From Escherichia coli (lineage in GTDB: Bacteria > Pseudomonadota > Gammaproteobacteria > Enterobacterales > Enterobacteriaceae), in NCBI RefSeq assembly GCF_009931435.1, contig NZ_CP043415.1: DNA of 64,000 nt. One strand, written 5' to 3'. Positions 35,088 through 35,206 of this stretch are shown here, piece after piece. A program made the translations under genes and the position numbers. A model generated the notes under the pieces. The model had not been told where the DNA came from. It ran no database searches and saw only the letters and a list, made by a program, of their open reading frames with translations. Positions within the stretch are counted from its first letter, which is position 1; every line of letters begins with the position of its first letter.

Positions 35088-35206
35088 AACAGCTACTCCT
35101 TTATGAAAGAATAAATTTAATAAAAAATTTTTCCGCTTAATATCATCCCTCCCGATCTCCATTAACAAGATTGCAACAATCAGGGGGGGGTATTCATCAC
35201 ATCCGG

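Follow-up and report, generated by a model that had tools for sequence, protein, structure and literature searches.

A length-variable G tract in the ygeA–ygeB spacer of an IncF plasmid lineage, probably a decayed arm of a predicted mRNA hairpin

The leading region and the orf95–orf273 spacer

The window, which is the whole 64-kb stretch of DNA analysed here, represents the leading region of an Escherichia coli IncF plasmid. Over positions 34200–36300 it matches NZ_CP075700.1 with 100 % identity, and its plasmid relatives number more than 5,000 records. According to the annotation of relatives and of F, traM (minus strand) is followed by oriT, the SLT ‘gene X’ (33368–33970, plus strand) and orf273, which carries a DUF932 domain; the order continues on the minus strand with the spacer, orf95, a GC-rich repeat, hok/sok, psiA, psiB, a ParB-like gene and ssb (Table 1). 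Gene X and traM are annotated as divergent around oriT. The product of orf95 has the accession WP_000107542.1 in the annotation of NZ_CP075700.1, which is the same accession as in F; a Pfam search with orf95 gave no family match, and a literature search on orf273 in the leading region found nothing. Gene order suggests that orf95 corresponds to ygeA and orf273 to ygeB of F. The start of orf273 is the ATG at 35087–35085 (minus strand), which is preceded by a strong AAGGAG Shine–Dalgarno sequence at 35096–35101.

Table 1. Positions of features in and around the orf95–orf273 spacer
Feature	Position	Strand	Basis
oriT nick-site motif GTGGGGTGTGGTGCTTT	33361–33377	plus	exact match
orf273, F ygeB by gene order, DUF932	34266–35087	minus	Pfam DUF932, E = 8e-45
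Predicted small hairpin including the orf273 Shine–Dalgarno AAGGAG	35093–35114	minus	minimum-free-energy folds; sequence invariant across aligned loci
Predicted intercistronic hairpin region, orf95 stop UGA to AAGCGG; degraded in the window	35133–35209	minus	
Partner site B, predicted 3′ arm pairing with site A	35147–35153	minus	CCCTCCC on plus strand, GGGAGGG in mRNA; folds and pair counts
G8 tract GGGGGGGG	35183–35190	plus-strand G8; C8 on the gene-coding (minus) strand and in mRNA	sequence
orf95, F ygeA by gene order, 95 aa	35207–35494	minus	ORF list
Frpo1-like repeat (single-stranded-DNA promoter region), upstream of orf95	35515–36144	minus	repeat comparison

In F, ygeA and ygeB are driven by Frpo1, and the gene beside oriT, ygfA, has the opposite orientation (PMC9849209). 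A 2026 preprint, in which Frpo1 is called ssp1a, likewise has ygeB downstream of it, and reports that transcription-primed strand conversion begins near ygeB. Couturier et al. found the Frpo1-driven ygeA and ygeB genes to be important for F conjugation and ygeB alone not to be deletable from F (PMC9849209). The window holds three Frpo-like copies, located at 35515–36144, 42885–43529 (95.5–96 % identical to the first) and 46232–46669 (approximately 83 %); the first two fit the Frpo1/Frpo2 pair of the literature. Together, orf95 and orf273 appear to belong to an operon read from the Frpo1 single-stranded-DNA promoter. The motif GTGGGGTGTGGTGCTTT is found on the plus strand and is what we take to be the F nick site. 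Thus, the eight Gs lie on the transferred strand, approximately 1.8 kb from nic, and are read as C8 in the mRNA.

Other elements are evident in the same region. A 20-bp perfect palindromic hairpin, TAATATAAGTAAAGCCCCGAAAATTTTTCGGGGCTTTACTTATATTA, is located right after the orf273 stop (34219–34265), where gene X and orf273 converge. It probably acts as a bidirectional terminator, and several weak, spurious Rfam matches fall on it. The only Rfam match above the gathering score in 34000–37000 is the sok antisense RNA of hok/sok (36558–36734, 88.9 bits). Additionally, a 1.95-kb IS21-family element (38830–40779; IstA with an rve domain, IstB) interrupts the ParB/Spo0J-like leading-region gene and is missing in the otherwise identical CP057923, CP057960 and NZ_CP157153.

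The initial annotation had reported a G8 run at 35183–35190 in the short spacer between orf95 and orf273. The run is present at exactly these positions, where the plus strand reads TCAGGGGGGGGTATTC, within a spacer of 119 nt (35088–35206). Its description as lying upstream of the orf273 start is loosely right, but the tract is much nearer to the upstream gene, being 16 nt past the orf95 stop and 95 nt short of the orf273 ATG. No other run of eight or more G or C occurs in the window. The expected number of G runs of this length is 0.58 (independent bases) to 0.74 (first-order Markov), and that of G and C runs together approximately 2.2; the presence of the tract is therefore no more than chance would give, and its existence is unremarkable. 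What is not explained by chance is its behaviour in relatives.

Length variation and origin of the pure run

An 88-nt probe compared with 72,556 plasmids gave 1,514 matching records, 15 of which have the homopolymer form, with the remaining records differing from the window form at no fewer than three positions. With the same probe, 1,440 of 5,426 complete E. coli genomes proved to have the spacer, and 7 records the homopolymer form. Within the window lineage, three of the 15 plasmids carry G7, eight G8 and four G9. Extraction of the site gave G7 in CP057960 and NZ_CP110259, G8 in NZ_CP075700, and G9 in CP057923, NZ_CP157153, CP057943 and NZ_CP076265. Over 2.1 kb, several plasmids are 100.0 % identical to the window save for one base of length. 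Over the 14.6 kb of 24200–38829, comparison of the window with two G9 plasmids and one G7 plasmid revealed no mismatches and a single gap, which is the tract. A further 7.5 kb adds only 2–4 substitutions, all in the second Frpo-like copy, and a (CAGTAG)n array altered by 24 bp. The tract had been regarded from its sequence as prone to slipped-strand mispairing, with comparison of related plasmids as the proposed check. This expectation is borne out, as the length is not fixed and G7, G8 and G9 occur on near-identical plasmids; slippage would be the mechanism of the length change.

The few substitutions in the second Frpo-like copy are clustered at 43020–43178. The array, a perfect (CAGTAG)×9.5 tandem repeat at 43530–43586, adjoins this copy; in the window it is 24 bp (four units) longer than in the three near-identical plasmids, making the array a second fast-changing repeat of the leading region. 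Strain STEC2018-607 carries two F-like plasmids, one with G8 (NZ_CP075700.1) and one with the interrupted GGAGGGA type (NZ_CP075698.1), and two spacer alleles in one strain would offer a chance of recombination between plasmids.

The sampled lineage records are mostly bovine-associated IncFIA/FIB/FIC plasmids. Among the eight G8 records are isolates from UK cattle, a Swiss patient, a dairy cow and a yak; the G9 and G7 forms (four and three records) each occur both on UK farms and in unrelated isolates of other countries. CP057960 (G7), CP057933 (G8) and CP057923 (G9) are all described as pooled faecal isolates of cattle on UK farms. This spread bears on a possible miscalling of the homopolymer in sequencing or assembly, be it of its length (G7/G8/G9) or of the tract as such; a sequencing artefact had been considered when the tract was first noticed. 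G or C homopolymers of 8–9 bases are error-prone on long-read platforms, and the differences are exactly ±1 base and are known from assemblies. However, the same G8 in eight records of diverse source makes an artefact unlikely as the origin of the tract, and both other lengths recur across countries. The interrupted ancestral form differs by substitutions, which are not a product of homopolymer error. Likewise, no other homopolymer differs among the three near-identical plasmids over approximately 22 kb (G7 at 46934, A8 at 33205 and T8 at 35427 are constant); generic homopolymer error therefore does not explain the length pattern. A tract-specific miscall could still account for individual ±1 records, yet as a general explanation of the variation an artefact is unlikely. 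The constant T8 run (35427–35434; A8 in the mRNA, encoding KKK) is located within the orf95/ygeA coding sequence.

Outside the lineage the site is usually interrupted. The closest plasmid, NZ_CP101276 (98.8 %), reads GGAGGGA at the site, which is one base shorter with two G-to-A differences, and GGAGGGA (UCCCUCC in the mRNA) or near variants of it are found in approximately 99 % of related plasmids. The tract is thus a homopolymerised form of this usual site, referred to here as site A, and is one base longer. Of the 120 loci found by a pattern scan of metagenome contigs, 119 are genuine and one is a chance match. All 119 are interrupted (GGAGGGA in 78, GGAGGGG in 19 and other forms in 22, including GGAGAGA in 10 and GGAGGAA in 7), and none has a pure run. 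From its sequence, GGAGGGG would be a one-transition intermediate towards the homopolymer. One relative (L130) reads GGAGGGGG.

A second, unrelated pure-run sublineage consists of NZ_CP104486 and NZ_AP027194, which are 97.8 % identical to the window and have G9 on the plus strand in both records, a shortened partner site and an intact ygeB. The pure run has therefore arisen at least twice, and it is not strictly tied to loss of the gene. It is rare: among some 2,500 plasmids that have a spacer of this type, approximately 17 carry it.

In the window, orf273 has an in-frame TAA at 34479–34481, codon 203 of 273, where F has CAA and NZ_CP101276 has CAG. The eight lineage relatives that cover the site stop after 202 codons, as the window does, and in one further member of the lineage ygeB is cut by an IS element. 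The window copy of orf273 is a pseudogene, although a 202-aa truncated YgeB might still be active. A natural lineage with a truncated ygeB is notable, since ygeB alone could not be deleted from F (PMC9849209). The listed ORF is 229 aa rather than 273 aa, and a frameshift of orf273 by the tract was considered as its cause; this was rejected, since the reading frame begins at the ATG at 35087 and is ended early by the in-frame TAA.

A predicted hairpin in the ygeA–ygeB mRNA

In the mRNA sense the spacer is nearly invariant save at three places, namely site A, a short stretch after it, and site B approximately 30 nt downstream. Sites A (usually UCCCUCC) and B (usually GGGAGGG) are complementary, and the pairing of the common type joins AUCCCUCCUGAUU to GAUCGGGAGGGAU. 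Predicted folding energies are −33.1 kcal/mol (z = −2.9) for the spacer RNA of F and −22.1 kcal/mol (z = +0.7) for that of the window. For 54 distinct spacer variants the mRNA-strand hairpin has a mean of −22.5 kcal/mol and a mean z of −2.25, and the antisense strand a mean of −12.4 kcal/mol and a mean z of −0.83. The hairpin region alone folds at −20 to −28.6 kcal/mol in relatives, with z down to −4.8, and at −16.8 kcal/mol with z of approximately 0 in its window version; the window-lineage variants rank among the five weakest folds of the 54. Restoring UCCCUCC in the same spacer gives −26.8 kcal/mol, compared with −17.5 for C7, −16.8 for C8 and −16.6 for C9 (z approximately 0). The predicted cost of the homopolymer is thus approximately 10 kcal/mol and that of the length changes less than 1 kcal/mol.

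In the alignment of 54 sequences, standard pairs make up 96 % of pair cells, compared with 42–66 % in slid controls. Variation within pairs is one-sided and wobble-compatible, with U-A changed to U.G in 22 sequences and C-G to U.G in 13. Compensatory cells in the F-type alignment number only 1 of 1,182, so that support there is thermodynamic and comes from the wobble-compatible one-sided changes. This pairing pattern is good but not conclusive evidence for the predicted hairpin. Stronger support comes from diverged spacers (approximately 82 % identity, some 2,150 IncFII-type plasmids), which are predicted to form a hairpin at the same position with other arms, CCCCUCGG/CCGAGGGG or, in another type, CCUGAUUGUUG/CAACAAUCAGG. 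The z values there are −3.3 to −3.9, with the mRNA strand again the more stable. RNAalifold applied to a MAFFT alignment of F-type and diverged spacers returned only 5 consensus pairs because the stem registers differ; as the consensus fold failed to unite the registers, the compensatory argument rests on the per-sequence folds. A search of 35088–35206 against Rfam gave no match even at E ≤ 1, and a literature search found no description of a hairpin in the ygeA–ygeB spacer.

Site B is itself a pure G run, from G5 to G10, in approximately 41 of the 119 metagenome loci, and reads AGGGGGG in F; it is a commoner hypervariable tract than that of site A. Nearer to orf273, the small hairpin listed in Table 1 is predicted to sequester the orf273 Shine–Dalgarno sequence (UUAUUCUUU/AAGGAGUAG) and is preceded by a strictly conserved A/U-rich linker.

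Interpretation and comparison with known systems

The initial annotation had also suggested that the tract could modulate expression. A scan of both strands for sigma-70-like promoters found no site spanning the tract; there is none on the minus strand, and the one plus-strand site, at 35117–35146, is outside it. Minus-strand TTGCAA or TTGTTA with GATATT, picked out by eye, is weak and does not span the tract, in agreement with the scan, and phase variation through a promoter spacer was rejected. A terminator scan found none at the tract or the spacer hairpin, where a G+C-rich hairpin followed by a U run is not seen; the 3′ arm is followed by GAUGAUAUUAAGCGG. Two coding possibilities were also considered. 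Small ORFs at site B (a 9-codon frame from the AUG after GGGAGGG, and one from an in-frame AUU) are poor candidates, as the AUG has a Shine–Dalgarno spacing of 1 nt and the Shine–Dalgarno-like motif is gone in the G-run variants, and readthrough of the orf95 stop codon was rejected, as the in-frame extension that it would give is not conserved. With neither coding frame, promoter nor terminator at the tract, near-equal predicted folds for C7, C8 and C9, and a premature TAA in ygeB in all members checked, modulation of expression is not supported, and no expression consequence is predicted for the length changes.

The tract is probably a lineage-specific, slippage-prone homopolymer without dedicated function, which arose through decay of a hairpin arm. 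In most F-like plasmids the ygeA–ygeB spacer would encode an mRNA hairpin with the 5′ arm AUCCCUCCUG(AUU) and the 3′ arm (GAU)C(G/A)GGAGGGAU, within an operon that would be transcribed off the transferred strand by Frpo1 shortly after entry into a new cell. In the window lineage, two U-to-C transitions (A-to-G on the plus strand) would have turned UCCCUCC into a pure C run, which may then have gained and lost single bases by replication slippage to give the C7, C8 and C9 alleles. C.A mismatches would thereby enter the stem, and its predicted stability would fall from approximately −27 to approximately −17 kcal/mol, with length shifts adding less than 1 kcal/mol. Full-length ygeB is lost in the same lineage, so that relaxed constraint on the spacer, and not a regulatory switch, is most likely what the tract reflects. 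Since the length changes precede a dead gene and have no predicted structural effect, neutral decay followed by slippage is the simplest reading, the order of the mutations and their neutrality being what we infer. Neutrality is not certain, given the independent G9 lineage with intact ygeB and the possible activity of the truncated YgeB, but the finding is probably an ordinary, neutral one.

A contingency locus, in which tract length tunes ygeB expression or ygeA mRNA stability through the hairpin and gives heterogeneous early expression in new hosts, is improbable. The tract is long enough for such a repeat (approximately seven or more for G or C), and its length differs between close isolates on an otherwise identical background. 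Additionally, site B is a variable G5–G10 run in about a third of relatives, the pure run has arisen at least twice, and the operon matters for F conjugation (PMC9849209). However, the tract is intergenic, outside any reading frame or promoter spacer, the three lengths are predicted to fold within 1 kcal/mol of each other, and the gene that would be controlled is a pseudogene in the window lineage, where the TAA lies at codon 203. A pure run in approximately 17 of roughly 2,500 plasmids is also unlike a selected switch.

Slightly less probable still is an element acting at the DNA level, in which the inverted repeat would work while the transferred strand is single-stranded, for instance as a structure recognised in complementary-strand synthesis, with A-to-G changes tolerated through G.T wobble. 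The plus strand is the transferred strand, the changes of the window lineage are wobble-compatible on this strand only, and the diverged spacers fold significantly on it too (z −2.7 to −4.4); transcription-primed conversion also starts near ygeB (2026 preprint). However, the window spacer folded as plus-strand DNA has a z of −0.07, and the antisense folds are much weaker than the mRNA-strand folds over the 54 variants. By a tally of the pair table, approximately one-quarter of paired cells are G.U and would become C.A mismatches on the plus strand, and the common G-run variants of site B would break plus-strand pairing. Least probable is that arms A and B act as paired hypermutable tracts, a rheostat on hairpin strength setting YgeB dosage or ygeA mRNA life in the first minutes after entry; if it existed, it would be a leading-region contingency element shaped by host-specific establishment pressures.

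On the preferred reading, that of a decayed hairpin arm with slippage, the tract alone matters little, as a rare, probably neutral, slippage-prone run. It could serve as a fast-evolving marker for tracking the plasmid lineage of the window. Of slightly more worth is the predicted hairpin, which is absent from Rfam and both arms of which repeatedly turn into variable homopolymers. The hairpin and the natural truncation of ygeB are concrete leads for work on gene expression in the leading region.

The tract shares with the simple-sequence contingency loci (the poly-G/C loci of Neisseria, Haemophilus and Campylobacter, and the fim promoters of Bordetella) a G or C run of 7–9 bases and a length that changes by single units in close relatives. 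Their repeats, in contrast, turn expression ON or OFF by length because they lie within a reading frame or between the elements of a promoter, whereas the G8 tract is intercistronic and upstream of a pseudogene.

The Frpo or ssi class 1 single-stranded-DNA promoters of F and ColIb-P9 (Masai and Arai 1997; PMC9849209; PMC12672017) share with the tract the operon and the transferred strand, and both are hairpin-forming sequences of the leading region. However, the Frpo1-like element is a separate repeat of approximately 630 nt; the tract is located approximately 325 nt downstream of it, has no −35 or −10 hexamers, and its region gives a z of −0.07 when folded as plus-strand DNA. For the spacer hairpin, support is stronger at the level of the RNA than at that of the transferred DNA strand.

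The malE–malF REP and pap intercistronic hairpins stabilise or insulate cistrons in polycistronic operons. The ygeA–ygeB arms differ from these in resembling an anti-Shine–Dalgarno/Shine–Dalgarno pair (CCUCC/GGAGG), and the structure has no Rfam family and is predicted from folds. Like the REP and pap hairpins, the predicted ygeA–ygeB stem loop sits after the upstream stop and before the downstream ribosome-binding site, and its position is conserved while the arm sequences drift. A role in mRNA stabilisation, processing or insulation between ygeA and ygeB would be favoured for the predicted hairpin.
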